Positions 19,237 through 39,683 of a stretch of DNA of 56,059 nucleotides are shown here, in pieces; positions within the stretch are counted from its first letter, which is position 1; every line of letters starts with the position of its first letter. The translations under genes were made by a program, and so were the position numbers. Under the pieces are notes generated by a model. It was not told where the DNA came from. It searched no databases and saw only the letters and a list, made by a program, of their open reading frames with translations. This DNA is from a virus (Duplodnaviria; Caudoviricetes). The stretch covers positions 1 to 56,059 of IMG/VR virus record IMGVR_UViG_3300027865_000011; one strand, given 5' to 3'.

Positions 19237-19420
19237 CCTGTTCCTTTCGCAGTCTCTGGGCCAGCTTGTAGGCGCTTTCCCTGCCGGGATGCTTCACGAG
19301 TATGTAAGTGCTGGTGTGTCTGCAATTCGTGCAGCGTCTCTCCTGGGTTTTCGCTCTGCCTGCCTGGAAGGTCTTCTTGACCCTCATCAGACCTATACCG
19401 CAGGCTTCGCAGATCATCAT
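19190..19420 (-). CDS. Small zinc-ribbon protein
   Basis: MICEAC...RRCTNCRH (two CxxC); ATGA overlap with terminase stop. Confidence 0.6.
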   Translation of the reverse strand: MMICEACGIGLMRVKKTFQAGRAKTQERRCTNCRHTSTYILVKHPGRESAYKLAQRLRKEQDGTGSETADEAPHAG

Positions 19421-20790
19421 CCCGCTACTCTCCCCTGCATGGCCAACATGTCGTAGAACGTCATGACCATCGCATCGGCATGATCTGGGGAACCCGCTTG
19501 CACCCTCTTGCGGTACTCCTCTTTGGACTCGACCTTGATCTTGCCTTTGAGCGTCATCGCATACTGGCGGCTGGAGAGCTCCTCTATGAGCTGTGGGTCG
19601 TTTGGGATATGGCAATCTCTCTGTCTGACGTACTTCGCCATGCTGAAAAACGCCTCTGTGACCTTGTCATGGTACTCGCTGCTTGTAGGTTTCCCTCCAA
19701 AATGGAACTCGTGGGTCTGTTTCCGGTTGTTGTGGAAGTGGTGCAAGAGGCCTTGGCCTACGCCACCCGCGTCCACGACGTACCAGCAATCTCGATTCTC
19801 CCAACCAAAGCTGCCTTGGTCTGCAAAGACCTGAGCTATGATCTTGTCCGGTTCGGCTTTGTAGTGGATCCTCTGGCCCACCACCGCGTGCCCGCTGCGC
19901 CGATACGCCACCGAAGCATCATCCCCGTAGCGGGCAAAGTCCATCCCGAACTGCTTGGTCGAAGATCTCCTGACCATATCCATCTTGTCGGTTCGGGCGC
20001 AGGCCTCGAGATCGTCGGACGACATGACGCAGTTAGGATCTGATTGTGGGAACTCTCCGAGGACCCGCACCCGATAGACGTCGCTGTCTGTGCCGTAGAG
20101 ATCCGCGAGCCGTCGGACGTTCTCCTTGTCCACGATGGGGCTCTCTTCTGCATTCAGGGTGAGCGTCCACCACTTCCTGCGATCTCGATTGAAGCAATCG
20201 AAGAAGGAGCTGTCCCGCGTGTTTGGGTTGCCGATCATCAAGAGCATCTTGTCGGTGTTCGACAGCGTCCCCAGGATCGTCTCGATGATGTTCCGAGCTA
20301 CGCCAGAGGCCTCGTCCACGATGAAGGAGAGGTGGTCGTTGTGCCAGCCCTGCATGTTCTCGGGCTTGCTGGCCGACGCGAGCTTGATGCCCCAGTCCTC
20401 GACCCCGAGGATCTCGATCTCCGTCGCCCGCACCTCGAAGAACTTCCGAATCTCAGGGTGGGCCTTCATCACCCGCCCCCGGGCTTCTGCAAGCCATACC
20501 TCTTTGCACTGCCGCATGGTGGGGGCCGTGACGACTGTCAAAGCCATGAAGTGGCGAAAAGCCTTCCAAAGCCCCGCGATGGTCGCAAGTGTAGTCTTCC
20601 CCGGGCCTTGGCCACTTTTGATGGCCATATGCGTAGGCTTGCCGTAGTAAACCTGGCTCTGTATCGCGGACAACACAGGAACCTGCTGGGCTGTCGGCTC
20701 GAAGTTGAAGCCTCGGCAGAACGCAAAGATGTCGTTTCTGGCGCGGTTGTAGAACTTCAAGAAATCAGCCGATGCTCGGGAAAGATACAC
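19417..20790 (-). CDS. terL: Terminase large subunit
   Basis: SGQGPGKT Walker A, IVDEASG Walker B, IGNP, GMDFARYGDD and SPDHADA nuclease motifs. Confidence 0.95.
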   Translation of the reverse strand: MYLSRASADFLKFYNRARNDIFAFCRGFNFEPTAQQVPVLSAIQSQVYYGKPTHMAIKSGQGPGKTTLATIAGLWKAFRHFMALTVVTAPTMRQCKEVWLAEARGRVMKAHPEIRKFFEVRATEIEILGVEDWGIKLASASKPENMQGWHNDHLSFIVDEASGVARNIIETILGTLSNTDKMLLMIGNPNTRDSSFFDCFNRDRRKWWTLTLNAEESPIVDKENVRRLADLYGTDSDVYRVRVLGEFPQSDPNCVMSSDDLEACARTDKMDMVRRSSTKQFGMDFARYGDDASVAYRRSGHAVVGQRIHYKAEPDKIIAQVFADQGSFGWENRDCWYVVDAGGVGQGLLHHFHNNRKQTHEFHFGGKPTSSEYHDKVTEAFFSMAKYVRQRDCHIPNDPQLIEELSSRQYAMTLKGKIKVESKEEYRKRVQAGSPDHADAMVMTFYDMLAMQGRVAG

Positions 20791-24417: not shown

Positions 24418-24834
24418 ATCGGTCTCCTTTTGGCTGTTCTGCTTGGTCTGCGGCTCCGCTGGTGGCGGCCTATGTTCTCCCCATGGTCCAGGATACCGCC
24501 GCAAGAAGCAAGTGTCCGTGAACGAATATCGCGAACGAGTGTTGCTCCGGGGATGGACCGTGGTATGCTCAGGTCGTCGCGCACCAGGCTCTCCCTCGCT
24601 CCACGCACACCTCACCGTCGCTCGAGCCTGGTGCGCGGCGATCTGGTTAATGTAGTACTATCGAGTCGCTGAGGCGGTTCCTCACGGGCCGAGGTCTTCA
24701 CAGATAGTGTTGCTTCAGGGATGGCTGTTCCTGAGGCTCCGCTGGTGGTTGTGCTTGACCTCGGCCCGTTTTCTACGCCCACAGGTGATGTGCGTGCCTC
24801 AAAGCCCCACTCGTGCCTCAAAGCCTCGCTTTTG

Positions 24835-24979
24835 ATAAAGGCATTTCTTTGTGCGTGATGTTTTCCCTCGTTTTCTCATAAATGCGTTTATCTGTACGTG
24901 TCATTACCCCACGTTCTGGAAAATGCACTTATGGGGAAAGTTCGTCGTCTCAGGTCGTGTTTCTGTATAAGTGCATTTT
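24835..24979. promoter_or_regulatory. Repeated ATAAGTGCATTT-type boxes (operator-like)
   Basis: Copies at 24835, 24880(rc), 24921(rc), 24967; further copies at 25490(rc) and 26477. Confidence 0.55.
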
Positions 24980-25329
24980 TTTGTTCCTGGAAATTTAGGG
25001 GTTCCCCGTGAAAAGGGAGGGCACACTGGGGAGCGCGAGGATCTCTACGTGTCCGTTCGACATGTTTTGCGTGCATGATGGGCACTACCCCACCCTCGAG
25101 CGGACAGAAACGCGCATTATCATCCACTGCCTTACCCAGCCTATGGCCCTTGATTGGTGTTTTCCGCGCTCGCCCGACCTTTGTTGGGCAAAGCCTCAAT
25201 AGTCGAAGGGTGACAATCCCCACCGTTTCGGAGCACCACCGGACACTGACTTGGGACAACCGCCATAAGCCCCGCAACCGCAGTAGGTTATGAGGTGGGG
25301 AGAATTCCACACATGGGGTGGGGAAAAAT

Positions 25330-25696
25330 TTGGCAACACCTTGGCAACACCTTTGCAACACCAAAAAGGTGCTCGATAACCGGGGGACATCGTTGGAGTT
25401 ACAATCATTAGCAACAGCGCAACAGTTTTTTATGAATACTATATGTGAGAAATACCCCTTCAATGCTTTTTATACACGCTATTCTATATAAATGCACTTA
25501 ATAATACGTGTCATAAATACATCATGTTACATGTATCTCTATATGGTTTCCGCCAACTGTTGCACTGTTGCCAACCGACCCTAACCCCTGCTCTCATGGG
25601 CACTTGCTGGGCAACACCAGCCCTTTTTCAAAGTGTAGCCGCCGTTGCCAGCACCACCTAACTCCTGTTCTCATAAGCACTTGCTGGGCAACACCT
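25330..25696. other. Putative replication origin: GCAACA iterons around an AT-rich core
   Basis: Three GCAACACC at 11-bp period; 17-bp inverted repeat 25411-25427/25555-25571 flanks the most AT-rich stretch; duplicated GCACTTGCTGGGCAACACC. Confidence 0.6.
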
Positions 25697-26087
25697 GCCT
25701 TTCGGCACCTCTCAGCGGGCTATCGAGGGGAGGCCAAGTGAGGGGGTGGGGGCCGCACTGGGCAGACGTCCACAGCGAAGCACGGAAAGCCTGTTGTGGG
25801 CGAGGCTACGATGACACAGGCCCCAGTGGTCGATTTAGCCTTGCCCAGCCTCTATGAGGCACTGAGAGCGGCTACAGGCAAGGAGCCTTTGACGTGCCGA
25901 TACTACATCCTATGGGCGCCGGGGGATGGGGATCCCGGCTCGGCGCGACCACCAAGAGGCCGGACCCGTGATGGGGAGGGGGAGGATCCTCGAGAAATGT
26001 ATTTTCTGAGAGGCCGAGCCTTGGGGGGGCGCAACCCCCTCCCCAGCAGGTACATACGCCAATCCGAACACATCGCCACACGCTCAT

Positions 26088-26696: not shown

Positions 26697-26854
26697 GCAA
26701 CCGAGCCTTGATCAGAATCGCAAGTGACCATGGGTGCAGCGCATTTGTGGATGCCGCGGGTCTTCACGTGGAGCATCAGTTCTTCAACGCACCCTCCGAA
26801 TGGAGCATCATCCCCGCGACCTTCCAAGCCTTGTGGGCCCACTTGGGCTATTGA
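26681..26854 (+). CDS. Small early protein (57 aa, below ORF track cutoff)
   Basis: MTTINRNRAL...WAHLGY*, same RBS as cassette 1. Confidence 0.75.
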   Translation: MTTINRNRALIRIASDHGCSAFVDAAGLHVEHQFFNAPSEWSIIPATFQALWAHLGY

Positions 26855-26889
26855 TCAACCACCACCGACCACCACCAGGAGCAACAGCC

Positions 26890-27498
26890 ATGACGACCAC
26901 CAACACCAACCAAGTCCTGAAAGTTCGCGTATCCGTCGACCCGTGCATCCGACTGATCCCGGGGTTCTTCTGCAATGGGCAGATCGTCGTGGCCGATCGC
27001 TACTGCGACTTGCCGCCCAATGTGCGAAGGATTCAGAAGGATGCGACGGATGGAGAAGTGTGGCTGCCCGGTACCAACACGCGGAGAATGCCGACAGAGG
27101 CGATTCAGGCCATGGTCAAGGACAACATGGTGCAAGACGATGACCGCACTGTCTCGGTGGTGATCCCTACGCGGTTTGGGGATACGGCCAGCGAGTCCCC
27201 GTATTGTCGTGTCGTCAACCTCGCAGGTGCGGTCAAAGGGTTCACCGCGCTGTCCACCCGTTACGCCGATGCGTTTGGGTCCGGCGAGTTCCGGATAGTC
27301 GCACCAGCCACGTACGACTGGAAGAAGGGGCAGGATCCCTTGACCATTCAACGAAGGCAATCAAGTACGGCCATGCACGGCAAGACCACCGAAACTTGGT
27401 TCGGCGTAGGCGTCTTGATGAGCATGACGCTGCGGAGTGCACGGGATTTGGCTGAGGAACTGGAGTTGCTCCTGACTGCCTTGAACAAGAGCAAGTAG
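26890..27498 (+). CDS. Hypothetical early protein
   Basis: AGGAG RBS, start MTTTNT. Confidence 0.7.
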   Translation: MTTTNTNQVLKVRVSVDPCIRLIPGFFCNGQIVVADRYCDLPPNVRRIQKDATDGEVWLPGTNTRRMPTEAIQAMVKDNMVQDDDRTVSVVIPTRFGDTASESPYCRVVNLAGAVKGFTALSTRYADAFGSGEFRIVAPATYDWKKGQDPLTIQRRQSSTAMHGKTTETWFGVGVLMSMTLRSARDLAEELELLLTALNKSK

Positions 27499-27545: not shown

Positions 27546-27932
27546 ATGACCGACACAACCGATACACTCCGCCACGTGCGACTCGAGGCGACAATCAACC
27601 ACCCATTCACCCTACGCACATGGGACACCCACAGGATCGAACCTCTGGGTAAGACCATCCTTGGCTACTGCCTATCGGATGCCAATGGCCCCATCTTCGA
27701 GGGAGAAGACTTCGCGTGCTCGCCCTTGGATGCCATCGACTCAGATGACTGCCTACGATCGCTGCTCGGGTTCCTCACTCTCAGCTCTGGTGATGCGGAT
27801 GCCGAGTATTTCGCAGACTACTCGGCAAGGCAGATGGAGTTTGCCGAGCAGGATGCCGAGTGGTTGGCCGTCTACACCGAGACTGATGAGAGTTCCGAGC
27901 ATGGCGCTGTTCCTTTCGAAGACATCGCCTGA
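27546..27932 (+). CDS. Hypothetical early protein (acidic)
   Basis: AAGGAG RBS; 128 aa. Confidence 0.75.
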   Translation: MTDTTDTLRHVRLEATINHPFTLRTWDTHRIEPLGKTILGYCLSDANGPIFEGEDFACSPLDAIDSDDCLRSLLGFLTLSSGDADAEYFADYSARQMEFAEQDAEWLAVYTETDESSEHGAVPFEDIA

Positions 27933-27971: not shown

Positions 27972-28625
27972 ATGTCTGCTACTCCAACCACCCCCACCGT
28001 AGTTCTGGACCGTCCCACCATCAAGGCCTTGATGAGCATTGTGTGCAAAGAGCGTACACGCCACGCTCTGCACACCATGCAAATCACAGACACTGAAGTG
28101 TCAGCTTCGGACGGCAAGGTAGGCATGATGGTAGCCCCGATCCCCCCGCAAGACGCCCCAGACGCCACCAACGGGTTCGCCCCCATGCTCTTGGGTCGAA
28201 AGGAGGCAGCTACTACGCTCAAGTTGATGGGATCGGCCAAGAAGATGGCGCCACCCACAGTAGCACTGTCTTTGAGCGATGAGCACAACCCGATCGGGCC
28301 TACCAAGATCGCAGCCGAGGTGCGGAACAGCTCAGGCGTTTTGCCTGTGCAGTTGCCCCAAGTGACTGGAGCATTTCCCAAGCTACGGTCAGTCATAGAC
28401 GATACCAGAGCCAGAGGCGAGGGAAAGAACACAGTGAGAGTCGATCCTCGCAAGTTGGGCGAACTCCTGTTGGCCGCTGCCGAGGTGCTTGAGTCCCGGG
28501 TACTCGGCAGGCAAATATCTGTAGTTACGCTATCGGTTTACGACAACCCGGAAATCCCGGTGTTCATCGACGGCCCAGAGTTTTGCCCATTGGTCGGTCT
28601 CAGCATGCCATGCTCGGCGCGGTAG
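27972..28625 (+). CDS. Beta sliding clamp-like protein
   Basis: RTRHALHTM...ASDGK and GAFPKLRSVI resemble DnaN R..L.GV...ATDG and G.FP.Y..VI motifs. Confidence 0.55.
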   Translation: MSATPTTPTVVLDRPTIKALMSIVCKERTRHALHTMQITDTEVSASDGKVGMMVAPIPPQDAPDATNGFAPMLLGRKEAATTLKLMGSAKKMAPPTVALSLSDEHNPIGPTKIAAEVRNSSGVLPVQLPQVTGAFPKLRSVIDDTRARGEGKNTVRVDPRKLGELLLAAAEVLESRVLGRQISVVTLSVYDNPEIPVFIDGPEFCPLVGLSMPCSAR

Positions 28626-28645
28626 CCACCACAGAAGGAACAGCC

Positions 28646-29011
28646 GTGAAAACTACCAGAGCCTTCCTCGACGGAGACCGGTACCACTTCGATTGGGTCA
28701 CGTGCTCATCGTCCAAGGGTTTCGCCCAAGTGGACACTTACCAAGATGCCAGCTACTTCGGTACGTGGGCCAACCCGACCACCCGCACGATCATCTGCTT
28801 CTGTGAAGGTGACTTGACCGTGCAAGAGGCCGAGACTGATGCCGAGTTCTGCGAAGCACTCCGGGCCATCAAGACTTGGAACACCGAGCACGGGGGCGAT
28901 GGGGGCTTCAAAGGGATCGACACTATGTGCCGACCCGAGATCACCGAAGCCTTCGTAGCGCTCGGGCTGCAAGACCTACTGCAACAGCAACCACCGAAAG
29001 AACAACCATGA
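28646..29011 (+). CDS. Hypothetical protein
   Basis: AAGGA RBS + GTG; DRYHFD...QVDT.QDASYFGTWANP. Confidence 0.7.
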   Translation: MKTTRAFLDGDRYHFDWVTCSSSKGFAQVDTYQDASYFGTWANPTTRTIICFCEGDLTVQEAETDAEFCEALRAIKTWNTEHGGDGGFKGIDTMCRPEITEAFVALGLQDLLQQQPPKEQP

Positions 29012-29328
29012 AAACCGCAAGCATCAGGTGCCTCGAGTGTGGCGAGCCCATGCGCTACCGCTACGCCGCGGACAACTTCGGAACGATCTTGGGACAACGT
29101 TGTGTTGCCTGTGCCGACGTCTCCGCGAGAGGATCCGACACGTGGGTACCGCGGCACCAGGGGACCTACTTCTACTTGGCCAGGGAACCACTTTGCGCGG
29201 TATCCCACTGCTTGGGGAAATGGTACGCCTACTACCGCGGAAAGTACGTGGGCAAGGCAATCGAGCGCAGCGGCGCGCAGGCCATGGTCCTACGGGCCGA
29301 GCAAAACAAAACCGCCCCAGGGGCGTAA
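29008..29328 (+). CDS. Small Cys-rich protein
   Basis: ATGA overlap; CLEC...CVAC. Confidence 0.6.
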   Translation: MKTASIRCLECGEPMRYRYAADNFGTILGQRCVACADVSARGSDTWVPRHQGTYFYLAREPLCAVSHCLGKWYAYYRGKYVGKAIERSGAQAMVLRAEQNKTAPGA

Positions 29329-29477
29329 CCCCCCAAGACGGCATGTTAGGTCGATGACGAGCGAAGCTCGACGCCGCTCACCAGTAAGCAACCCCCGCGG
29401 CGAAACACCGCAGGCCAGCGAGACGGCCTAAGACAGGAGCAAGCTACAGGAGCCCACCGGGATGGGCAAGAACTTTC

Positions 29478-29555
29478 TCGACCGGACTCGTCGACCGGAC
29501 TCGAGAATAGGACTCGTCGACCGGACTCGAGAATAGGACTCGAGAATAGGACTTG
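29478..29555 (+). repeat. Tandem array, 6 x 13 bp, GGACTCG core
   Basis: Units TCGACCGGACTCG / AGAATAGGACTCG; last unit runs into TTGACA. Confidence 0.95.
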
Positions 29556-29581
29556 ACAAGCCGCACGCCAAGACGTACGTT
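29553..29581 (+). promoter_or_regulatory. Sigma70-type promoter
   Basis: TTGACA-17 bp-TACGTT. Confidence 0.8.
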
Positions 29582-29610
29582 GACCACGAACACGAAAGAA
29601 GATCAGAGCC

Positions 29611-30048
29611 ATGAGAACGAGAACAGCCGACACAGATCCCCAGATGCGCCACGCCAACACCGACGGCGATTGTGCTCGAGAAAACGTGATGACCATGGCT
29701 ACGCTGCTCATCACAAGACGTACGTCGAAGGTGGCGGAGCAGGTGATCTTGCTTGACATGCTGGGAGCACTCCCCATCGACATGATCCCCACGACACCGA
29801 GCTTGCGACATTTCGTGGTTGATTTGTTGACGGAGGGATTAGCAGCGGCACGCTACGCGCAGTCGAAGGTCTTGGGCGACTACATCCCGGCTACCCTGCT
29901 CCCTGCTCGGGTGGTCGATTGGCTGGTGCTGTGGGCCCTCAACTACGCTGGCGACACTGGCCCGAAGAAGCTCCCACCTCCACCGATCGAGACATCGGGA
30001 GGCCAACTGATCGAGCAAGGCGACGATCCCGAGGCACCAAGAGGATGA
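29611..30048 (+). CDS. Hypothetical protein upstream of recombinase
   Basis: Follows promoter; ATGA overlap with recombinase. Confidence 0.6.
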   Translation: MRTRTADTDPQMRHANTDGDCARENVMTMATLLITRRTSKVAEQVILLDMLGALPIDMIPTTPSLRHFVVDLLTEGLAAARYAQSKVLGDYIPATLLPARVVDWLVLWALNYAGDTGPKKLPPPPIETSGGQLIEQGDDPEAPRG

Positions 30049-31007
30049 CCACCCTACCCACAACCACCGCCGGCACGCCCCTCATCACCGTGGCCGACGT
30101 CCGGCGCGATATGCTCGCGGCATTCACCTGCGGGAAGAAGGGTACGACCGTGCGAGCCTATACGCGGGACCTGCGGGACTTCGCCAGGTTCCTCGGCGCA
30201 GAGCACCCCAACGCGGCCATCGCCCTCCTGGTGGGCCAGGGCCAGGGGGAAGCCAACGTCAAGGCCCACGCCTACCGAGCGTGGATGCTCGAGAAGAGAC
30301 TCTCCCCCGCGACGGTCAACCGGAGGCTATCGGCGCTTCGGTCTGTCGTGCGACTGGCCCGGACTTTCGGTTTGGTGTCCTGGGGACTCGATGTCACGTG
30401 CGTCCCCTCGCAGGCCTACCGGAACACCGCTGGCCCGGGGACGCCCGCATTTCAAGCTATGTTACGTAACACGGAGGACCCGCGGGATCGTGCAATCCTG
30501 CGCCTGCTGTTCGACGTGGCGCTGCGCCGGGGGGAGATTGAGAGCTTGGATCTCGAGCACGTGCGCCCACAGGGGGAGGGCTTGTCACTCGAGATCCAAG
30601 GGAAGGGTCGCTGGGAGCGCGAGCTCCTCGAGCTCCCAGCGCCTACTGCAGAAGCTTTGGCCGCATGGCTCGAGATGCGTGGTACGGCCCCGGGGCCCTT
30701 GTTCCTGAATCGGGACTCCGCAAGGAAGGGAGTGGACGGTCGACTCTCGTCCACCAGTATCTACCGGATCGTCCAAGCCGCGGCCGCGCGCGCCGAGGTG
30801 CCGGGGCCCGTGAGTCCCCACCGCTTGCGACACTCGGCAATCACCCGAGCAGCCAAGCTGTTGCAGGGAGACATGGTGAAGCTGGCGAAGTTCAGCCGGC
30901 ACCGCGACATTCGAACGGCCGCGCGCTACGTGGACAATGAGCAGGGTGTAGCTGCTTCGGTGGCGCGGCAGGTGGCGGACCTGGGGACTGATGAGGAGGA
31001 CTCGTGA
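30045..31007 (+). CDS. Tyrosine recombinase (Xer/resolvase-like)
   Basis: TVRAY..DL, SPATVNRRL, LRRGE, GKG, PHRLRH, SRH, RYVD: catalytic residues present. Confidence 0.93.
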   Translation: MTTLPTTTAGTPLITVADVRRDMLAAFTCGKKGTTVRAYTRDLRDFARFLGAEHPNAAIALLVGQGQGEANVKAHAYRAWMLEKRLSPATVNRRLSALRSVVRLARTFGLVSWGLDVTCVPSQAYRNTAGPGTPAFQAMLRNTEDPRDRAILRLLFDVALRRGEIESLDLEHVRPQGEGLSLEIQGKGRWERELLELPAPTAEALAAWLEMRGTAPGPLFLNRDSARKGVDGRLSSTSIYRIVQAAAARAEVPGPVSPHRLRHSAITRAAKLLQGDMVKLAKFSRHRDIRTAARYVDNEQGVAASVARQVADLGTDEEDS

Positions 31008-31008
31008 C

Positions 31009-31296
31009 ATGGACTCGAACATCAAGTGGCCGAGACACAAAGCTTCTCTGTCTGTGGAACATCAGCCACACAAGGCGTACTACGAGTCCATCGCCCAACA
31101 CATGGAGTCTTTGGGAGGCGCGGCACCCTCTTGGGCAACGGAGGACTCCGAGAGGTTGGCATTGGAGAAAGATGAGTTGTGGTTTCTGCTGTGGTATCCG
31201 GACACCCCGGTAGCCTTTTTCTCAGTAGCAGGCCACTCCTTGGAAGACGCGCTCGAGGGGGCACGAATGATCCAGGAACAGGAGGACTCGCGATGA
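31009..31296 (+). CDS. Hypothetical protein
   Basis: GAGGAGG RBS; WYPDTPV.F motif. Confidence 0.7.
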   Translation: MDSNIKWPRHKASLSVEHQPHKAYYESIAQHMESLGGAAPSWATEDSERLALEKDELWFLLWYPDTPVAFFSVAGHSLEDALEGARMIQEQEDSR

Positions 31297-31703
31297 AAGA
31301 TCCGATGGACGATCTGAAAAGCTCCGCAAACACGGTGCTGGGGTTTCGGTACGCGGCTGCTCTTTTCGCAGGCGTGGCGATCTGGGCTCTCTTGGGCTTC
31401 GGGTGGTGCATGCTCTTCTTGGCAGCTTGTGCTTTGGGTTCTGCGTTCTATCTCCGGCGTTCGGCTGACAAGAAGATAGTGATGGACTTGGTTGAGAAAT
31501 CAGCCCAGAAGGAAGCGCCAGCCCGAGGCCCCTTCGTCCGCAACAGCAAGATGGTCCTCGGAGATGATGTGCATCTGGAGTACAAGAACCCTGGCCATAC
31601 CCTCAATGGGCCCATGTCTTGGCGGCTTGGAAAGAGCTTTGGGAAGACCCCAGGCGCCCCGGCATCAAGTACGGGCATCAGTACACCATCAGTCTCGCGT
31701 TGA
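31293..31703 (+). CDS. Membrane protein
   Basis: GGAGG RBS; two hydrophobic segments. Confidence 0.65.
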   Translation: MKDPMDDLKSSANTVLGFRYAAALFAGVAIWALLGFGWCMLFLAACALGSAFYLRRSADKKIVMDLVEKSAQKEAPARGPFVRNSKMVLGDDVHLEYKNPGHTLNGPMSWRLGKSFGKTPGAPASSTGISTPSVSR

Positions 31704-31785
31704 TGGAAGAGGAGGTGACGGACGGTGGGACGGACGGTGGGACTGATGGCGAGGACTCGTGACACGGACTCGAAGGAGGTGAGAC

Positions 31786-31962
31786 ATGAGTAGGAGGCGC
31801 GATATCTACCAAGCCATCAAGGATGCCGTCGATGAGGGTCGTGGCCTGCACTTGTCGGCGTATGAGGTTCTTCTCTTGTGGCACGACCAAGCTATTCAGC
31901 AGATCATATGGACCGCGCTGGAAGAGCAAGCGGATCTCATAGACCCAGGAGGTGAGACATGA
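31786..31962 (+). CDS. Small protein (58 aa, not in ORF track)
   Basis: AAGGAGGT RBS; MSRRRDIYQ...PGGET*. Confidence 0.7.
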   Translation: MSRRRDIYQAIKDAVDEGRGLHLSAYEVLLLWHDQAIQQIIWTALEEQADLIDPGGET

Positions 31963-32300
31963 GCGAAGCTGAGAAGCGTGAGTACCTGCTCAATCGTGGG
32001 TGGTTCTTCCTACACATCGACACACTCGGAGGCGATTCGAAGGAATACGCCATAAAGCACCCGGACCTGCCGAGCTACGATGCGTTCGGGTTCGAGAGTC
32101 TGGACCCGGTCGAAAACGCCGTCGAGCTACAGCGACATGTCGACAAGGCCCGCGAAGAGGGGCGGCAAGAGGAACAAGAGGCGTGCGCGAAACTGGCGGA
32201 GTCTGCTTTTCCTCCGGCGTTCGGACCGGTTTCCATGTTCTGTCCACGAGAACTTGGCAGGATCATGGCCGAGCGTATCCGCGCCCGAGGTGAGACATGA
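31959..32300 (+). CDS. Hypothetical protein
   Basis: GGAGGT RBS; EQEACAKLAE...AERIRARG motif common in small phage proteins. Confidence 0.7.
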   Translation: MSEAEKREYLLNRGWFFLHIDTLGGDSKEYAIKHPDLPSYDAFGFESLDPVENAVELQRHVDKAREEGRQEEQEACAKLAESAFPPAFGPVSMFCPRELGRIMAERIRARGET

Positions 32301-32404
32301 GCGAGAGCATCAAAGAGCATCTTGAGGGCAAGGGGTGGCTGTTCCATTTGGAGACATCCGATTGTGACGGAGCACAGTGTATACACTCGCGTGACGCTAC
32401 CTGA
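32297..32404 (+). pseudogene. Truncated paralog of 31959-32300 (35 aa)
   Basis: MSESIKEHLEGKGWLFHLET vs MSEAEKREYLLNRGWFFLHIDT. Confidence 0.45.
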
Positions 32405-32479
32405 ATGAATCTTGCGAGGCCTCGCGAAGTAGCTGGCCTCTTCTACCGGGGCATGAGCCCCTCAACTTGGAGAACTACC

Positions 32480-32983
32480 GTGAAGCAAGCGCTTCTTTTC
32501 CTGGCCATCATTGGCCTGTTCTTGGTGCCCGCCGTTTCGCTGGCGCAATGCCCTCTCTCGGGTGGTGACGCCAACATCAGGTACAACGAATCGTCAACGG
32601 GTGCTTGGGGGATCCACCACATGGGTCGTTGGGATGTCGATCTTGACGAGTCGTTGATCCCGTTCAACCCTGGCGGGGAGTGGCATTTCCATTCTGCTCT
32701 CATCGTGAGCGCGGACTGTGCTTGTGGCGGTGAGCACAATACGGCGGATTGGGCTACCGAAGCTGGCGGCAAGATGTACATCGACGTACCCGCTGCACGA
32801 GCGGCGGACTGCTTCAAGATCGAGATTGAGATTTGGGTAACGTGGGCCGACGATTCGACGCCGACCAACTACACCCACACGTGGTACACACAAGAGATCG
32901 ACATTTCGAGTTGCGCTCCGCTCGTGACGACCACCACCGGCTGGCATGACCGAAGCCTCCACCGCATGCTGCTCGTGATGTAG
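32480..32983 (+). CDS. Secreted protein with signal peptide
   Basis: GGAG + GTG; KQALLFLAIIGLFLVPAVSLA|Q; several Cys/His. Confidence 0.65.
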   Translation: MKQALLFLAIIGLFLVPAVSLAQCPLSGGDANIRYNESSTGAWGIHHMGRWDVDLDESLIPFNPGGEWHFHSALIVSADCACGGEHNTADWATEAGGKMYIDVPAARAADCFKIEIEIWVTWADDSTPTNYTHTWYTQEIDISSCAPLVTTTTGWHDRSLHRMLLVM

Positions 32984-33042
32984 CCAGCCCGACCACGACC
33001 ACCGGAGCATAAGGCAGCACCCCCATGAGCGTCGCCTATGCT

Positions 33043-33144
33043 CCCCTCCTAGAGTCCGAGGAGCAGGACAAGGGACTTGCCTCTCGGACTCTAGGAGGGG
33101 ACTCGAGGAGGGGACTCGAGGAGGGGACTCGAGATCTGGACTCG
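33043..33144. repeat. Second 13-bp-period GGACTC array overlapping an 18-bp inverted repeat
   Basis: GGACT at 33073, 33086, 33099, 33112, 33125, 33138; CCCCTCCTAGAGTCCGAG (33043-60) pairs with 33083-33100. Confidence 0.92.
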
Positions 33145-33166
33145 GTAACACCAAAGGAGATCGACA

Positions 33167-33349
33167 ATGAGCATCGGCGGCTGGCACATAAAAGGCATTC
33201 TGCGCAAGGTCACGAAAATCGAGAACGTCGAACACCACCCCAAGAAGAAGAAGATCACCCTTCACTGCGGGCACACCATCCTGCGGTGGGATGCCGACGT
33301 GCCCAAGAAGCGCGCGCGGTGCCTTGAATGCGCCAAGCGTAGGCCTTGA
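33167..33349 (+). CDS. Small zinc-binding protein
   Basis: AAGGAG RBS; LHCGH...RCLEC. Confidence 0.65.
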   Translation: MSIGGWHIKGILRKVTKIENVEHHPKKKKITLHCGHTILRWDADVPKKRARCLECAKRRP

Positions 33350-33564
33350 ACAGGAGCAAGAAGGTGAAGAACTTCAATGGCAAGGCACTGGCGAGGCTTT
33401 GGATCCACTCAACATGCACGGTCATCATGTTGCTGGTGGGGGCGCACTTCTTGGATAAGGGCTACTACTGGTTTGCCGTCATCGCAGCGGTCTTGACGCC
33501 TTGCAATCTTTGGTCCGCCGTGGACGCCATGATCGACTTCCGCAAAGAGGAAAACAAGAAATGA
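33346..33564 (+). CDS. Small membrane protein
   Basis: Overlap-coupled both sides; two hydrophobic helices. Confidence 0.55.
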   Translation: MNRSKKVKNFNGKALARLWIHSTCTVIMLLVGAHFLDKGYYWFAVIAAVLTPCNLWSAVDAMIDFRKEENKK

Positions 33565-34730
33565 CACTCGTAAGAGAGCAACTCAACGGTTGCCAGCTTG
33601 CCGCCGTCCAAGCAATCAAGGCTTGGTTCGATGAACGGCCGGACGACGTGAGAGAAGACGACATCGTCTGGCATCCCCAAAGCAAGGAGCTCTCCCTGGG
33701 AGGCCTCGCCGGCACGGGGAAGACGTCCCTCGTTGCCTTCTTGATGCAGGACTCGGAGTTCCTTGGATTGTTCGCCGGGGTCCTCACCCCCACGGGCAAG
33801 GCGGCCGAGGTGCTTCGAAGCAAGGGCATCCCCGCGGACACCATCCACAGTGCGCTCTATCGCTGCACGGGCGAGGAGGAGGAGAACGACCGCGGTGAGC
33901 TGTCGCCGGTCTTCGAGACCAAGACCCCGATATTCCGCCGCGGGGACTTCGTCATCATCGACGAGGCTTCGATGGTCAATGCGGAGCTTGCTCGAGACAT
34001 CCGAAACGCGGGGTGGAACGTGCTCTGGGTCGGTGACCACGGACAGCTCCCCCCGGTGGGCGAGGATCCGGGGATCATGACCGAGCCCGATCTTCTCCTC
34101 GACGAGATCATGCGCCAAGCCGCTGAGAACCCCCTCATCGCCTGCGCGTACCATCTGAGGCAAGGAGGCACTCCACAAAACTGGGGCCCCACATATTCCG
34201 AAGTGGTGGTGAGGGCGAGGACCTACCCTTCGCACTACGCAAAAGCAGCCTACGACGGGCGCTACGACCAGATAATCTGCGGCTTCAACCGAGATCGCCA
34301 CGCAATCAACATCCAATCCCGAGCCCTTCGGGGCTTCACCGACCCTCTTTGCGTGGGGGACTTGGTGATCTGCCTGCGAAACTCTCGGAAGAAGGGGATC
34401 TGGAACGGGCAGATCTTCGAAGTCCTCGAGCTCAGCGAAGGCTCCGTCACGAACTGCGTGAGCGCGGTGCTCCGCTCGGAAGATCCCGACGCGGGCGCCA
34501 TCTACGTGGACATCGACGTGCCGTCGCTCGGCGGCGCTCCGGCGGGGTACGGACGAGCTAAGAAGGCGCATCTCTTCGACTACGCCTACGCGATCACCTG
34601 CCACAAGGCCCAAGGGAGCGAGTGGGGAAAAGTCCTCGTCGTGGATTCTCCCTGCCAGTCTTGGGACAACGACCGGTGGCGCTACACCGCGGTAACGCGC
34701 GCGCGGGACCAAGTCACGATCTTCGCATAG
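33561..34730 (+). CDS. SF1B helicase (Dda/RecD-like)
   Basis: GLAGTGKT, TPTGKAA, DEASMV, GDHGQLPPV, YAITCHKAQGSEW, YTAVTRA. Confidence 0.93.
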   Translation: MTLVREQLNGCQLAAVQAIKAWFDERPDDVREDDIVWHPQSKELSLGGLAGTGKTSLVAFLMQDSEFLGLFAGVLTPTGKAAEVLRSKGIPADTIHSALYRCTGEEEENDRGELSPVFETKTPIFRRGDFVIIDEASMVNAELARDIRNAGWNVLWVGDHGQLPPVGEDPGIMTEPDLLLDEIMRQAAENPLIACAYHLRQGGTPQNWGPTYSEVVVRARTYPSHYAKAAYDGRYDQIICGFNRDRHAINIQSRALRGFTDPLCVGDLVICLRNSRKKGIWNGQIFEVLELSEGSVTNCVSAVLRSEDPDAGAIYVDIDVPSLGGAPAGYGRAKKAHLFDYAYAITCHKAQGSEWGKVLVVDSPCQSWDNDRWRYTAVTRARDQVTIFA

Positions 34731-34822
34731 ACCAGGACAACAGCGGACCCGAGGTGGATGCCTCTCGACTCGGGGCCGGAGAAGCGGTACGGTGAGAGGC
34801 CATACACGGAGCGAGTACGACT

Positions 34823-36265
34823 ATGAGCACACAGAAGACGAACGTACCGACGGAGAGAAGTGAAACCATTCTCGAGGAGGCCGCGCGCATTGTAGACGGC
34901 CCGCGGCGGAAGGAGTACGGCCATCCGAAGGCCAATATCGGCCGGGTCGCCATCTTCTGGTCGGAAATCGTCGGCGTCCCCATTTCCCCCGCGCAGGTGG
35001 CCCTCTGCATGATCGCCCTCAAGATCGCGCGGCTCGCCCACAAGGTCGATCGGGACGGCGTGGTGGACATCTGCGGCTACGCCAGGATCCTCGAGCTGCT
35101 CTGCCTCGGAGCCGCGGAGGGTTCGGGTGGGGAGGATTCTGCGCAGGCCGCGGAGGAACCCCCAAGTGCTTCGCCGGGCACCAACTTCCAGGGATCGTGC
35201 CTCAACATCCCGGCGTCGGCGAGCGCCCCGAAGGAGCCTACCCCATCTCTGCGTGACCACACCGTACGCAGCAAAGGGCTTGACGCCTTGCACGAGGCGC
35301 TCAAGACAAGCCAGGCCGCCTTGCGGGAGCTTTCCCTCGAGCAGCGCATCTTGAAGCAGCGGATCTGCCAAGAGGCGCTCAAGATTCCGCCCTCTTCGAC
35401 CGTCGAAGACGCACCTGAACCCAAGCCAAAGCGCAAGATTTCGGAACTGATCGACGAGGCTGTTAGAGATGGTGCGGATGAGCCGTCGCCCTCTGCTTGG
35501 GCCCTGGCACACATCAAGCAGTACACCCTCCCCTGCCCCAAGGAGCAGCTCCCCAAGCACTGGGTCCGCAAGAAGGATCTGCGCACGGGCGAGTTCTTTC
35601 CCTTGCGAGCGAACGGGGCGATGTTGGTGGGCTTCTACGAAGACCACCCGATCAAGCTGCTCATCGACGAACAGGGCCGCCCCTGCACGCTGATCTACTC
35701 CGGGGCGTTCAGCCCTGGGCCGTCGTCGTTGACCCCCAAGCCGGACAGTCAATGGATTTGGGAGTGGGACGCAGACAAGAAGCTCTTCCGTAGAGACCTC
35801 ACTGCGACGGAGATCGATGGCATCCTGGCGGGGGTCTTCGGGTTCGACACGATAGGAGGCAACGGCTTCCGGATCTTCAGGGTGCTCGGGTACGAGAACC
35901 CCTACGCCGAGGAGCCCTCCAGAGAGGCCCCTCAGCCTACGCCTGAGCAGGAGACACCGGCCAGCCCGCCCTGCTCGACCTTCCCGCGCCGAGAGACCGT
36001 CAGCAGCTTCCGAGGGAACCCGGTGGAGCTCCTGATCGGTGCCGACGACATCCCCTACGCCCTCTTCTGCGCGTCGACCGTCATCCCCTGCAAGGCAGAT
36101 GATTGGGGACACGACGACGTGAGGACTGGATGGCTCCGGGATCTCTCCCCGGAGGAGATCGCTGCTTGGGCCTCCGAGTCGCTCACCTTCGAAGAAGTCT
36201 CGAACCACGGACCCGGCTATCTGGAGATCAGCACATCCACCACCATCCCTCCCGAGGAGGACTGA
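34823..36265 (+). CDS. DUF6378-domain protein with long C-terminal extension
   Basis: ILEEAARIVDGPRRKEYG...VALCMIALKIAR...DICGY. Confidence 0.75.
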   Translation: MSTQKTNVPTERSETILEEAARIVDGPRRKEYGHPKANIGRVAIFWSEIVGVPISPAQVALCMIALKIARLAHKVDRDGVVDICGYARILELLCLGAAEGSGGEDSAQAAEEPPSASPGTNFQGSCLNIPASASAPKEPTPSLRDHTVRSKGLDALHEALKTSQAALRELSLEQRILKQRICQEALKIPPSSTVEDAPEPKPKRKISELIDEAVRDGADEPSPSAWALAHIKQYTLPCPKEQLPKHWVRKKDLRTGEFFPLRANGAMLVGFYEDHPIKLLIDEQGRPCTLIYSGAFSPGPSSLTPKPDSQWIWEWDADKKLFRRDLTATEIDGILAGVFGFDTIGGNGFRIFRVLGYENPYAEEPSREAPQPTPEQETPASPPCSTFPRRETVSSFRGNPVELLIGADDIPYALFCASTVIPCKADDWGHDDVRTGWLRDLSPEEIAAWASESLTFEEVSNHGPGYLEISTSTTIPPEED

Positions 36266-37049: not shown

Positions 37050-39683
37050 ATGCCTCAATGGCCAAACGTAACCGTCTTGCATTACCGGAACACCCGAGGC
37101 ATCAACGCCTACGGGGACGAAGCGCCGAAGCTTCCTGTGATGCCCCTCAAGACCGCGTTGGAGAAGAGGTGGGTCACAGACTCCCACATGACCGGCTACT
37201 TGCTGCACCACGACGCCTCTGAGGTCTATGCAAAAGATGGGGAGATGGTCAGGGTCAACAAGCCATCTCTCGAGTCTTTAGCCAGCGAAGGGTTCTCTGT
37301 CCTGACCAGTGTGGTCCTCGTAGATCTCGATCTTCCCAAGCACATCTTTTGGGACGAAGAGCAGCTGGCGCTGTTCCTCGAAGCCTTCGAAACCGCCAGC
37401 ACCCAAGACGAGATGTTGAAGCAGTGGCACGCTTTCTATTCCACGAGATCCGGTGCTCGTCTCGTCTACGCGCTGGATCGGCCGGTGCCCTGCCCCGCGG
37501 CGGAAGGAGTGATTAGGGGGATCCTCTTTCGGATATCGCAGACAGCTCTCGGCCCCTACACAGACACCAGCACCTACGACTTCACTCGACTGTTCCGGCT
37601 TCCTCAAGTGACTCGGGACGGTCATCCTTCTTGGGAGCAGGACTACTGCCAGCTCGAGTTTCAGCCCGAGCAACCGCTCTTGGCCACGAAAAACATCGCC
37701 CCGATCCTGACCACGGCGAAGAAGTACGGGAAGGTTCTACGGATCACGGGGGATTGCCCCGGGGCCGACGAAGCCAAGGCGTGGCTCACCATAACCAGCG
37801 AGACCACCGGGCAGCCCGTGATGAGCGAGTGGTTCAAACGGGCGAGGAGACAACTCAAAGGCCGAGAGAGCGCCGACCTGATAGACGGGAAGCTGGACCT
37901 CGAGACCTGGCCCGACGGAAGGAACAACGGCCTACGCTTCTGCGTCGGGCAAGCGGTGAACCTGCTCTACCTCCTGCCAGGAGCAGACCCGAAGCTGCTC
38001 TTCGCCCTCTTTGTGGACCCTTGCGAGCAGCTCGAGGCAAGGACCGGGGACGATGACGGCAAGTCTTGGTTGGACATCCTCTGGCATTTGACCACTCATT
38101 GCTGGGAGAAGGAGTCGGCCAGCGTTCAGGTGGAGGACGCGAAGCGTGAGCACGTGGCCCTTCAATCGGGCAAGATCTCCCTGGACATCTTGACAGGCAT
38201 GAGGAAGTGGTGCTCTTGCTCTATCGTGCATGGCCCGGAAGTCGAAGCGATGCTCTGGCTGAATCGGTATCTGATCGTGTTCTGCGACGGGTTGTACTAC
38301 GTGATGCGCCCCGACGGTTACTACGACAGCGTGGGCGTGGGCGTGCCCAACTTGGTCGCCCGAATCCGAGAGTTGGGGATGCAGGGGATCATTCCCATAG
38401 AAGAAGAGGTGGTCGTAGGTGGGCAGGTGGTTCGGCGAGATGTCCCGACACAGAGGATCATCAACCGTCATGTTTCGGTCGTCCCCTACTGCGCCGGAAT
38501 CGTGGGCACCGCCGGAAGCGTCGTGCGGGATCTGGGCACAGACTCTGCCACGTTTCAGTTCAAAATGTACTCGAGGCGCACCGACATTGATCCGCAGTGG
38601 TCCGACGAAGTAGACGCTTGGATGGCAGCGACCTTCGGAGAGGCCTACGAAGAGGTGAAGAACTGGATAGCCCACGCCTTGAACTTCGAAGGCGGCGGGA
38701 TCTGCGCGCTCAGCATCAATGCGCCGCCGGGCATCGGCAAGAAGCTTCTCCTCGAAGGCCTCGCGGAGTGCATCGACACCAAGGCGGTAGCCAGCGCCAA
38801 GGAGCTGACGGGGCGCTTTCAATCCATGATGCTCAGCACGCCCTTCCTATCCATCAACGAAGGTCTGCCCAAGGTATCCCGCGACGGGAGCAACGACCCC
38901 GCTGACTCTTTCCGTGCCTTGATAGCCGGAGACACCCACAAGGTGGAGCAGAAGGGCCGCGGCATCATCTCGATCCACAATCCGATGCGTATTGTGATCA
39001 CCGCGAACAATGACAGAATCCTGCAAGACTTGTACGGCAACCAAGACCTAAGCCCCCAGGACCGGGCAGCTCTCGGTAAACGCATCCTCCATTTCGATCT
39101 TGGAGCCGAGGGAGAAGCGTGGTTGCGCAGGAAGGGAGGCATGGCCTACACCGGGAACCCACAAAGACGATGGATCCGAGGCGACGATGGCCGACAGAGC
39201 CACTGGCTGATGGCCAGGCATTTCTTGATGCTCTACAAGCATCGTCTTCCTGTCCCGATCGGCAACCGTCTCTTGGTTGAAGGAGACCCAGACAGCGGCA
39301 TCGTCCGAGAGATGGCCGTGTCAAGCGGTGGGTCGCCAGAGATCATCGAAGTGATCGTGAGGATGACGGAGGAATCGCAATTCCCCCCAGGGATCCAGCT
39401 AAAAAACGGGGGCGTCTATGTGTCCGCCCTCGGCGTGCGAGACTTCCACACACAGCTCTTTCCCTTCGAGAAGAAGCTGAGGCTCTCCCGGGTGAGCTCG
39501 GTACTTCGGGGCCTGTCCTCGAGGAGTGCCAGCCAAGCTCGACAACTCCACGGCCCAGGCACGCCGAAAGTCCGAGCTTGGAAGATCGACACGAATATCC
39601 TGATGCGACATGCAGACACGAACGGACATCCTTGCGAACGCCTAAAGGATCTGGTAAGCTCCAACGCGAACGCGAACGAATAA
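37050..39683 (+). CDS. Primase-helicase (AEP-like N-terminus, P-loop NTPase C-terminus)
   Basis: VDLD, STRSGARLVY, TRLFRLP..RDG; RNN; APPGIGK, INE, VITAN. Confidence 0.85.
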   Translation: MPQWPNVTVLHYRNTRGINAYGDEAPKLPVMPLKTALEKRWVTDSHMTGYLLHHDASEVYAKDGEMVRVNKPSLESLASEGFSVLTSVVLVDLDLPKHIFWDEEQLALFLEAFETASTQDEMLKQWHAFYSTRSGARLVYALDRPVPCPAAEGVIRGILFRISQTALGPYTDTSTYDFTRLFRLPQVTRDGHPSWEQDYCQLEFQPEQPLLATKNIAPILTTAKKYGKVLRITGDCPGADEAKAWLTITSETTGQPVMSEWFKRARRQLKGRESADLIDGKLDLETWPDGRNNGLRFCVGQAVNLLYLLPGADPKLLFALFVDPCEQLEARTGDDDGKSWLDILWHLTTHCWEKESASVQVEDAKREHVALQSGKISLDILTGMRKWCSCSIVHGPEVEAMLWLNRYLIVFCDGLYYVMRPDGYYDSVGVGVPNLVARIRELGMQGIIPIEEEVVVGGQVVRRDVPTQRIINRHVSVVPYCAGIVGTAGSVVRDLGTDSATFQFKMYSRRTDIDPQWSDEVDAWMAATFGEAYEEVKNWIAHALNFEGGGICALSINAPPGIGKKLLLEGLAECIDTKAVASAKELTGRFQSMMLSTPFLSINEGLPKVSRDGSNDPADSFRALIAGDTHKVEQKGRGIISIHNPMRIVITANNDRILQDLYGNQDLSPQDRAALGKRILHFDLGAEGEAWLRRKGGMAYTGNPQRRWIRGDDGRQSHWLMARHFLMLYKHRLPVPIGNRLLVEGDPDSGIVREMAVSSGGSPEIIEVIVRMTEESQFPPGIQLKNGGVYVSALGVRDFHTQLFPFEKKLRLSRVSSVLRGLSSRSASQARQLHGPGTPKVRAWKIDTNILMRHADTNGHPCERLKDLVSSNANANE

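Follow-up and report, generated by a model that had tools for sequence, protein, structure and literature searches.

Strand-locked GGACT repeats with a 13-bp step in the early region of an uncultured phage family: possible protein-binding sites for early-gene control

The record IMGVR_UViG_3300027865_000011, all 56,059 bp of which form the window analyzed here, belongs to a tailed phage whose source sample is seawater; it is ∼60% in guanine-cytosine (GC) content, rated 97% complete and classed linear. Upstream of its primase-helicase gene, short units with a GGACT core follow one another at exact 13-bp steps on the + strand, forming two six-unit arrays and two triplets. The motif, its phase, its strand and its confinement to the early region are conserved across a family of phages. 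Array 1 runs into the −35 hexamer of an operon promoter, and several other clusters lie on stop/start junctions or just before starts. Our tentative reading is that the clusters may be phased, orientation-locked protein-binding sites on DNA, which gate early-gene expression in the manner of stoperators or start-associated sequences.

Clusters of GGACT units in the phage genome

The four clusters are located as follows.

29484..29555, + strand: array 1, six units in 13-bp phase, in the non-coding 282-bp gap after gene 29008-29328.
30985..31017, + strand: triplet 1, with units GGACTGA, GGACTCG and GGACTCG.
31740..31772, + strand: triplet 2, with units GGACTGA, GGACTCG and GGACTCG.
33073..33144, + strand: array 2, six units in 13-bp phase, in the 183-bp gap before gene 33167-33349.

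An earlier, sequence-only reading of this DNA had described four co-oriented GGACTCG clusters at exact 13-bp spacing, with no such arrays elsewhere. All four are present as claimed, and counts of phased doublets and of GACT-GACT distances gave none beyond them in the 56-kb genome. Its six units for array 1 are correct as well; the start it gave, 29478, takes in one spacer and has to be moved to the first unit at 29484.

In array 1, GGACTCG is found at 29484, 29497, 29510, 29523 and 29536, followed by GGACTTG at 29549; the spacers alternate between TCGACC and AGAATA, repeating as a 26-bp unit. Array 2 starts with GGACTTG at 33073 and GGACTCT at 33086, continues with GGACTCG at 33099, 33112, 33125 and 33138, and has mostly AGGAGG spacers, which repeat as a 13-bp unit. 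Both triplets sit in a 44-nt direct repeat, the two copies of which are 86% identical and 755 bp apart.

Enrichment is mild for the bare heptamer, whereas the 13-bp phasing is far beyond chance. GGACTCG has 25 matches in the genome against 15.0 ± 4.6 expected, a count reached in 3 of 100 shuffles; three units in 13-bp phase with at most one mismatch gave 10 matches, against 0 in each of 100 shuffles. The pattern GGACTCG-N6-GGACTCG occurs nine times forward in the whole record, with no match in reverse and none for the backwards control. Likewise, GACT recurs at a distance of 13 fourteen times on the + strand and never on the − strand, and each other distance from 5 to 29 is found at most three times, save 26 (10 times).

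Two simple explanations of the units were rejected. GANTC (CcrM-type) methylation sites do not account for them: GACTC is present in 56 of 76 units, but the invariant part is GGACT, and the GGACTT, GGACTG and GGACTA units hold no GANTC. Rho takes 13 nt per subunit, and a Rho loading site of six units was dropped because the units are G-rich. No published description of 13-bp-phased GGACT repeats was found in the literature searched, which took in neither supplements nor subscription journals.

Conservation of the motif in distant relatives

A pattern scan of 2.9 million viral contigs for three phased GGACTCG units returned five loci, four of which were compared. Two of them are distantly related to this phage (G000), namely G001, a complete record of 57.6 kb, and G002, of 33 kb; both share with it, at 27–45% identity, the portal, protease, capsid, tail proteins, primase, nuclease, DEAD helicase and polymerase. 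G003, a uniform tandem repeat, and G004, a mixed short repeat, have no BLASTP similarity to this phage. Primase alignment added 10 viral loci, 9 metagenome loci (mostly short upstream DNA) and one contig of a metagenome-assembled genome (MAG), L164, which is the closest relative found (primase 37% identical). In protein alignments the primases of distant relatives with GGACT/13-bp sites are 25–37% identical, and the replication proteins of the relatives are 25–48% identical. The early genes are unrelated, with core, phase and orientation kept.

Long GGACTC arrays in 13-bp phase were found in G000, L025 (the same as G005), L028 (G002) and L033 (G001), and in each case they precede the primase gene and have its orientation. 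Among the 13 other relatives, which lack long arrays, two GGACT words stand 13 bp apart 13 times in sense and 0 times in antisense, with at most three cases for any other distance from 5 to 40. The basic element therefore appears to be a doublet, of which the arrays are multimers. When all 5-mers recurring at a distance of 13 were ranked, GGACT, GACTC and ACTCG led the list, each greatly exceeding the background for its other spacings. Relaxing the core to GACT also revealed degenerate arrays in L164, L031 and L029.

A scan for four GGACT units yielded 15 loci. At ten of these, one unit or two alternating units are repeated in tandem, and the records are unrelated; the five with variable spacers all belong to this phage family: G001, G005, G012, G013 and one fragment. 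The first four encode the primase, G012 (GC 0.42) with an hmmsearch E=1.3e-220 and G013 with E=5.8e-179; the fragment is 54% complete, and its array matches that of G012 over the stretch compared.

In maps of seven genomes, 70 GACT-N9-GACT pairs have the orientation of the primase gene and one has the opposite orientation; a separate count over 13 loci gave 38 sense and 0 antisense phased pairs. Every site of G000 and G005 lies within a few kb upstream of the primase gene, as do most sites of the other genomes, with a few strays in G006, G012 and G013. The number of clusters per genome varies from 1 to >10, over 3–6 kb. An 8.7-Mb MAG showed background only (9 matches vs 19 for the control). 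Spacers vary from array to array and from phage to phage, leaving the core and the step as the only constants, and the GGACT/13-bp sites persist in genomes whose GC spans 0.42–0.65. That the clusters are phased binding sites for one protein, as the sequence-only reading proposed, is supported indirectly by this retention of core, phase and orientation in distant relatives.

Other elements were noticed in the same regions of the relatives. Just upstream of the GACTCG array of L164, positions 780-900 hold three palindromic sites of the ATTGCGA-N5-TCGCAAT type, a classic three-operator set, and 4227-4484 of this contig encodes an HTH_3 protein, so that this phage has a repressor system of its own in addition to the GGACT sites. 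In the high-GC branch of the family, GGDEF (diguanylate cyclase) domain proteins are among the early-region products (L029 4865-5440 and L031 5021-5545).

Position of the clusters relative to a promoter and to gene starts

Array 1 is followed by two features.

29553..29581, + strand: promoter-like site, TTGACA (29553-29558), 17 bp, TACGTT (29576-29581), read by eye.
29611..30048, + strand: gene after array 1, 145 aa, the stop of which overlaps the recombinase start (ATGA).

TTGACA begins within the last unit of array 1 (29549-29555): the T that closes the GGACT core of this unit also opens the −35 hexamer, so that the register is GGACT/TGACA-17-TACGTT. This overlap bears out the earlier claim of an array over the −35 element upstream of 29611-30048. 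In L164 the same register is found with a stronger promoter, AGACT/TGACG-17-TAGAAT, which was scored 10/12 by the consensus scan. Fusion with the −35 hexamer in both phages fits the autoregulatory, operator-like option among those raised at first. For the product of 29611-30048, Pfam and PHROG scans found no family.

The other three clusters of this phage lie at gene starts. Both the recombinase stop (31005-31007) and the ATG of gene 31009-31296 fall within triplet 1, whose last unit has the G of this ATG as its first base. From the end of triplet 2 to the ATG of gene 31786-31962 there are 14 nt, and from the end of array 2 to the ATG of gene 33167-33349 there are 23 nt. Counted from cluster end to start codon, the three distances are −8, +14 and +23 nt, and relatives show similar ones. 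Nine of 40 clusters end between −10 and +30 nt from a called start, where 8.7% would be expected (P=0.006 in a binomial test); gene calling was crude and overlooked at least two further start-adjacent cases that can be seen by eye.

Some minus-strand signals were also observed at array 1. A terminator-like hairpin with a T-run is present on the minus strand at 29311-29342, just left of the array, and a promoter-like TTGTCA-18-TATTCT lies within it on the same strand (29530-29559), where the AGAATA spacers read as −10-like hexamers. Together these could yield a short leftward RNA complementary to the units. An antisense small RNA running from TTGTCA-18-TATTCT to the hairpin at 29342-29311 was dropped as a candidate, as the L164 array has no comparable minus-strand −35-like hexamer by eye, and the promoter scan gave none there.

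A possible DNA-level control of early genes

In the reading that we tentatively favor, the basic site would be two GGACT(C)(G) half-sites, 13 bp apart and head to tail, with longer arrays as multimers; one sequence-specific factor would bind successive units side by side. At array 1, the bound protein would cover the −35 hexamer and 70 bp upstream and set the firing of the promoter. At the co-oriented sites downstream, it might block or gate the passage of RNA polymerase or the access to gene starts. Early, non-structural genes would be timed or shut off in this way, as by the L5-type repressor at operators and stoperators. Two positions argue for a DNA-level element: the L164 array fuses with the −35 hexamer in the same register as in G000, and the G001 arrays lie between convergent genes, after a terminator-like hairpin, with no sense-strand gene start following. 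The latter position fits a DNA-level barrier better than an mRNA leader.

The closest known systems come from cultured phages. According to the available text of PMC9283540, the asymmetric sites to which L5-type repressors bind are found within promoters and in narrow gaps between genes; they point the way transcription runs, and repression is lost when their orientation is reversed. Like the GGACT sites, the Cluster A stoperators in that text are asymmetric, transcription-oriented and present in many copies per genome, with an early-promoter site over the −35 hexamer (here in G000 and L164) and short intergenic sites (here at 30985, 31740 and 33073). Different from the GGACT sites, which have a 5–7-bp core at 13-bp steps in doublets to octets and are confined to the early block, stoperators are single 13-bp sites bound by one monomer each and spread genome-wide. 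The immunity repressor of Cluster A, with helix-turn-helix (HTH) and stoperator domains, is phage-encoded, whereas Pfam and PHROG scans of the open reading frames (ORFs) of our window gave no HTH or repressor family, an L5-type repressor profile not being searched specifically. In addition, the GGACT motif is constant across very distant relatives, unlike stoperators, which reportedly diverge with immunity groups.

The start-associated sequences (SAS) of Cluster K, as far as the available text of PMC3203893 describes them, occur in the non-structural half only, in one orientation, a few bp before gene starts, and are conserved ahead of unrelated genes. There, SAS and extended SAS (ESAS), like the GGACT sites, are short asymmetric repeats of the non-structural region in nearly one orientation, some of them overlapping an upstream stop. 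However, SAS is one 13-mer containing the Shine-Dalgarno core rather than tandem units, and it stands 3–7 bp before starts, whereas only about one-quarter to one-third of GGACT clusters are start-adjacent. Unlike SAS, two GGACT arrays are promoter-fused and many clusters lie inside genes; an ESAS-like hairpin partner is clear only at array 2.

With the motif kept from GC 0.42 to 0.65, the reader should be a conserved phage protein or universal host machinery; a phage protein kept by the whole family would be most likely. Early-region proteins are unrelated between phages. Five non-structural proteins are present in all six genomes compared: the primase-helicase, the nuclease, the DEAD helicase, the protein 43588-44109 and the polymerase. 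The first of them is the marker gene of the family.

37050..39683, + strand: primase-helicase, 877 aa, with a DxD primase-like N-terminus, a superfamily 3 (SF3) helicase core and a C-terminal domain that may be a winged helix; PF19263.

The primase-helicase matched the PDB entries 6k9c/6k9e 'Primase' (E=2.2e-6) and, over the helicase core, parvovirus NS1 (E=0.017); its SF3 core is like those of the NrS-1 phage enzyme and parvovirus NS1. The predicted model of its C-terminal part has a mean predicted local distance difference test (pLDDT) score of 64.9, and the last 125 residues reach 75–91. The matches of these 125 residues are mostly winged helices, namely PadR, Cdc6/Orc1 on origin DNA, origin recognition complex (ORC) subunits and SaPIbov1 Rep. 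For the protein 43588-44109 (model pLDDT 81.4), Foldseek matched the oligonucleotide-binding (OB)-fold protein PrgE (E=3e-5) and single-strand-binding proteins (SSBs); judged from this model, it is likely an SSB, and it was rejected as the reader, sequence-specific binding being unlikely for an OB-fold of the SSB/PrgE type. On these models, the primase-helicase is the lead candidate, and no more than a candidate, as the only plausible sequence-specific reader among the five universal proteins.

Several observations weigh against DNA-bound control of the early genes. The −10 hexamer TACGTT is weak, matching at 3/6 positions, and the consensus promoter scan missed 29553-29581. Nineteen of 40 clusters are inside coding sequence, far from any start, and G006 has a few sites outside the early region as well as one on the other strand. 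A step of 13 bp is not a helical repeat, so neighboring protomers would spiral around the DNA. The closeness to start codons, together with the GGA that sometimes takes the Shine-Dalgarno place, fits a reader of RNA equally well. Regarding the reader, the early-region ORFs of seven phages share no DNA-binding family in Pfam and PHROG scans. The winged-helix matches of the primase C-terminus have Z scores of only 4.5–5.8 in a moderately confident model and may reflect a common arrangement; no Foldseek hit reached E <= 0.001 for this model, and no residue of the domain is invariant across nine homologues, which one would not expect of a protein that reads an invariant motif.

Alternative readings at the RNA level and at the replication origin

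It is also conceivable, though on balance doubtful, that the repeats act in early mRNAs, binding a translational repressor or processing factor (T4 RegA/RegB or CsrA-type GGA sites) which covers ribosome-binding sites. The sites are on the transcribed-sense strand, 70 to 1; several clusters end 1–25 nt before start codons or overlap starts, and in some relatives the GGA of the last unit is at the Shine-Dalgarno place (e.g. L031 2199 and L034 153). A universal host RNA-binding machine could explain the conservation across hosts of differing GC. However, in two phages the −35-fused array lies upstream of the transcript start it would regulate, and the G001 arrays precede opposite-strand genes. 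CsrA/Rsm-type sites display GGA in hairpin loops and over the Shine-Dalgarno sequence, and their spacing is flexible. A GGA core is present in the GGACT units, and these are spaced rigidly at 13 nt, a fixed step that flexible RNA readers of the CsrA kind would not be expected to need. The CU after GGA, which CsrA-type sites do not need, is invariant here.

RNA structure was found at one of the two arrays of this phage.

33042..33101, + strand: inverted repeat, 24-nt arms and a 12-nt loop, 92% complementary, leading into array 2.

The 3′ arm of this repeat holds units 2-3 of array 2, and the 5′ arm holds one inverted unit. The RNA of the array-2 hairpin folds at −77.4 kcal/mol, against −56.4 ± 4.0 for shuffles (z = −5.24), and a 24-bp hairpin abutting the array would be an RNase III-like substrate, in favor of an RNA-level element. 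No excess structure was found over array 1 (z = −0.12), which was counted for a DNA-level element and against an RNA reader. A hairpin preceding the main array is not a general rule: the z values of eight arrays, from +0.68 to −1.68, are not significant. Rfam gave no family, with only sub-threshold microRNA look-alikes on the array-2 hairpin.

Less probable still is a role in replication, with the clusters as iterons or priming sites. The primase-helicase would then open an origin at the arrays, which are 3.6 kb apart, as in P4 ori/crr, or prime at GGACT on one strand. This protein marks the family and belongs to the five non-structural ones that are universal; another of these, 43588-44109, is SSB/PrgE-like. 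Initiators combining a primase-like N-terminus, an SF3 core and possibly a winged helix, such as P4 alpha and SaPI Rep, bind short repeated sites. Iterons read by primase-helicase or SF3 proteins are known from P4 ori/crr with gp-alpha, from SaPI Rep and from SV40 large T at its pentamers, where the early promoter is also repressed. Like them, the GGACT clusters are short direct repeats, kilobases apart, beside replication genes, with one over an early promoter. The cumulative GC skew has its minimum near 28–30 kb. Sequence-specific priming is described for the NrS-1 enzyme in the available text of PMC8718748.

Against this, clusters numbering from 1 to >10 over 3–6 kb, locked to one strand and often inside genes, are unlike an origin and too many for iterons of the P4, SaPI or SV40 type. 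There is no AT-rich unwinding stretch by the arrays, where the lowest GC in 40 nt is 0.425–0.45, and the winged-helix matches of the primase do not exceed Z = 5.8. A better origin candidate is the AT-rich non-coding region 4 kb to the left. It comprises ∼0.9 kb of apparently non-coding DNA at 24.8–25.7 kb, the most AT-rich stretch of the genome, with a GC of 0.20 at 25389-25566. An 11-bp tandem repeat, TTGGCAACACC, is present there three times at 25330-25362, and further GGCAACACC copies lie near 25610 and 25690. Because no AT-rich stretch adjoins the arrays, while 24.8–25.7 kb reaches a GC of 0.20, the GGACT arrays are probably not the origin. The region 24800-25700 also adjoins the switch from leftward to rightward genes, and it is a better candidate than the GGACT arrays for an origin or main switch region.

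One scheme would join control and replication. In this rather speculative and improbable case, the primase-SF3 helicase itself reads the 'GGACT every 13 bp' code, shuts the early promoter, stalls transcription and then starts replication at one array, a bacteriophage version of the logic of polyomavirus large T. If this were true, the primase-helicase and a five-base word would couple early-gene shut-off to the onset of DNA synthesis in hosts whose GC ranges from 0.42 to 0.65.

The tyrosine recombinase and other improbable readings

Between array 1 and triplet 1 lies a recombinase gene.

30045..31007, + strand: tyrosine recombinase, 320 aa, XerC/D-like; PF00589 (E=1.7e-15), PF02899, phrog_1.

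The sequence-only reading had offered the arrays as accessory sites of this enzyme, bounding an excisable or variable 3.6-kb unit. We regard it as very improbable that the arrays guide the recombinase or delimit such a unit, although they bracket its gene and the triplets form 44-nt direct repeats 755 bp apart. Array-carrying relatives have no recombinase homologue by BLASTP; PF00589 matched in 0 of 5 relative records searched, three of them complete, and the recombinase alone, used as a probe of viral contigs, found nothing. The protein has only SAM-like (PF02899) and catalytic (PF00589) domains, without an extra arm-binding domain, and the units, all direct repeats, form no inverted core site. 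Contigs of two sequencing runs showed no joints and no indels over the region; the assembly of the likely source run breaks inside array 1, and contigs are blind to rare rearranged forms. As it is absent from relatives carrying arrays, the recombinase is a bystander, and the GGACT system is independent of it.

The centromere-like sites proposed at first, for a plasmid-prophage lifestyle, are equally improbable. Short direct repeats near a promoter do recall type Ib/II centromeres such as parC and parH, but PF02195 (ParB_N) and the ParA-type PF13614 (AAA_31) had no match in the genome with positive controls, small ribbon-helix-helix partners lying outside this search, and the sites are many, tied to transcription direction and often within genes.

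Functionless 13-bp tandem repeats arising by slippage are the most improbable reading of all: some spacers do repeat inside arrays 1 and 2, and GGACTCG repeats with a 13-bp period are common in unrelated bacteria (at least 120 loci, nearly all with uniform spacers), so that a pattern match alone proves nothing, but here the spacers differ across arrays and phages while core and phase are kept, and one strand has an excess of doublets at exactly 13 bp even where their spacers are unrelated. Among the bacterial loci we noticed 13-bp tandem repeats of GGACTCGTAGGTC or GGACTCGTTGTAA that each terminate in a GGACTTnAGTCC hairpin and recur at many places within one genome (L044, L060, L086, L088, L136 and L144 in one Motiliproteus MAG; L043, L051 and L148 in cyanobacteria). 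They form a dispersed repeat family unrelated to the phage GGACT element.

Genome organization and occurrence

Pfam matches and PHROG names identified a lambda-E-type major capsid protein, a portal, a large terminase, GTA-like baseplate proteins, a thymidylate synthase and a replication block. The last of these consists of a Dda/RecD-like helicase (33501-34730), a DUF6378 protein, the primase-helicase, a PD-(D/E)XK nuclease, a DEAD-type helicase, the small protein 43588-44109 and a family-A DNA polymerase. No tRNA gene was found in the window. Compared with isolated phages, the DNA of 28500-36000 gave a single 64-bp helicase match, the primase protein gave none, and the best capsid matches are ∼27% identical; by these comparisons no isolated phage is close to this genome.

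By coding potential, the + strand gene run left of array 1 comprises 26734-27498, 27546-27932, 27972-28625, 28583-29011 and 29008-29328. Between the two arrays, the + strand genes are 29611-30048, 30045-31007, 31009-31296, 31293-31703, 31703-31762 (an ORF of 19 codons), 31786-31962, 31959-32300 and 32405-32983; after the array 2 gap come gene 33167-33349 and the helicase. An 18-nt ribosome-binding/start block, GAGGTGAGACATGAGCGA, precedes three consecutive small genes of this stretch, at 31776-31793, 31949-31966 and 32287-32304. Two of its copies are identical and one is 83% identical, and the products of the second and third genes look paralogous.

Elsewhere in the genome, the genes of the large terminase (19417-20790) and the portal (49430-50839) lie on the − strand, and those of the capsid, protease and tail proteins on the other. 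Conserved shadow ORFs overlie the portal gene on the + strand, and G001 and G002 have the portal arranged in this way too. The polymerase frame 44295-47225 opens with ∼320 residues resembling phage DNA methyltransferases (41–48% identity to genes of Edwardsiella, Pseudomonas and Xanthomonas phages) and continues as one open frame into the family-A polymerase, which represents either a fusion or an unrecognised internal start.

This phage was found in two sequencing runs, one likely source run and one other seawater run; no RNA run was listed for it. The second run, from another study, has identical or near-identical contig pieces at 28831-29096, 30299-30623, 31523-31782 and 33388-33569, differing by a C>A change at 31660, so that this phage, or a strain very close to it, recurs in another sample.

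Discussion

Strand-locked, dispersed repeats in phage early regions have been known from a few cultured actinophage clusters, as stoperators and start-associated sequences. The same kind of element is now seen in an uncultured, mostly aquatic phage family, and the recombinase-cassette boundary, a false lead for these arrays, is removed. The conservation of the sites narrows their reader to five universal phage proteins or universal host machinery, and a reader protein can be tested directly, as core, spacing and orientation can each be altered alone. For metagenomic members of the family, the GGACT motif can serve as a marker of the early region and of the direction of transcription. Its grammar (a core, a step of 13 bp, a single strand) survives where protein similarity between these phages is almost gone and where GC has shifted from 0.42 to 0.65.

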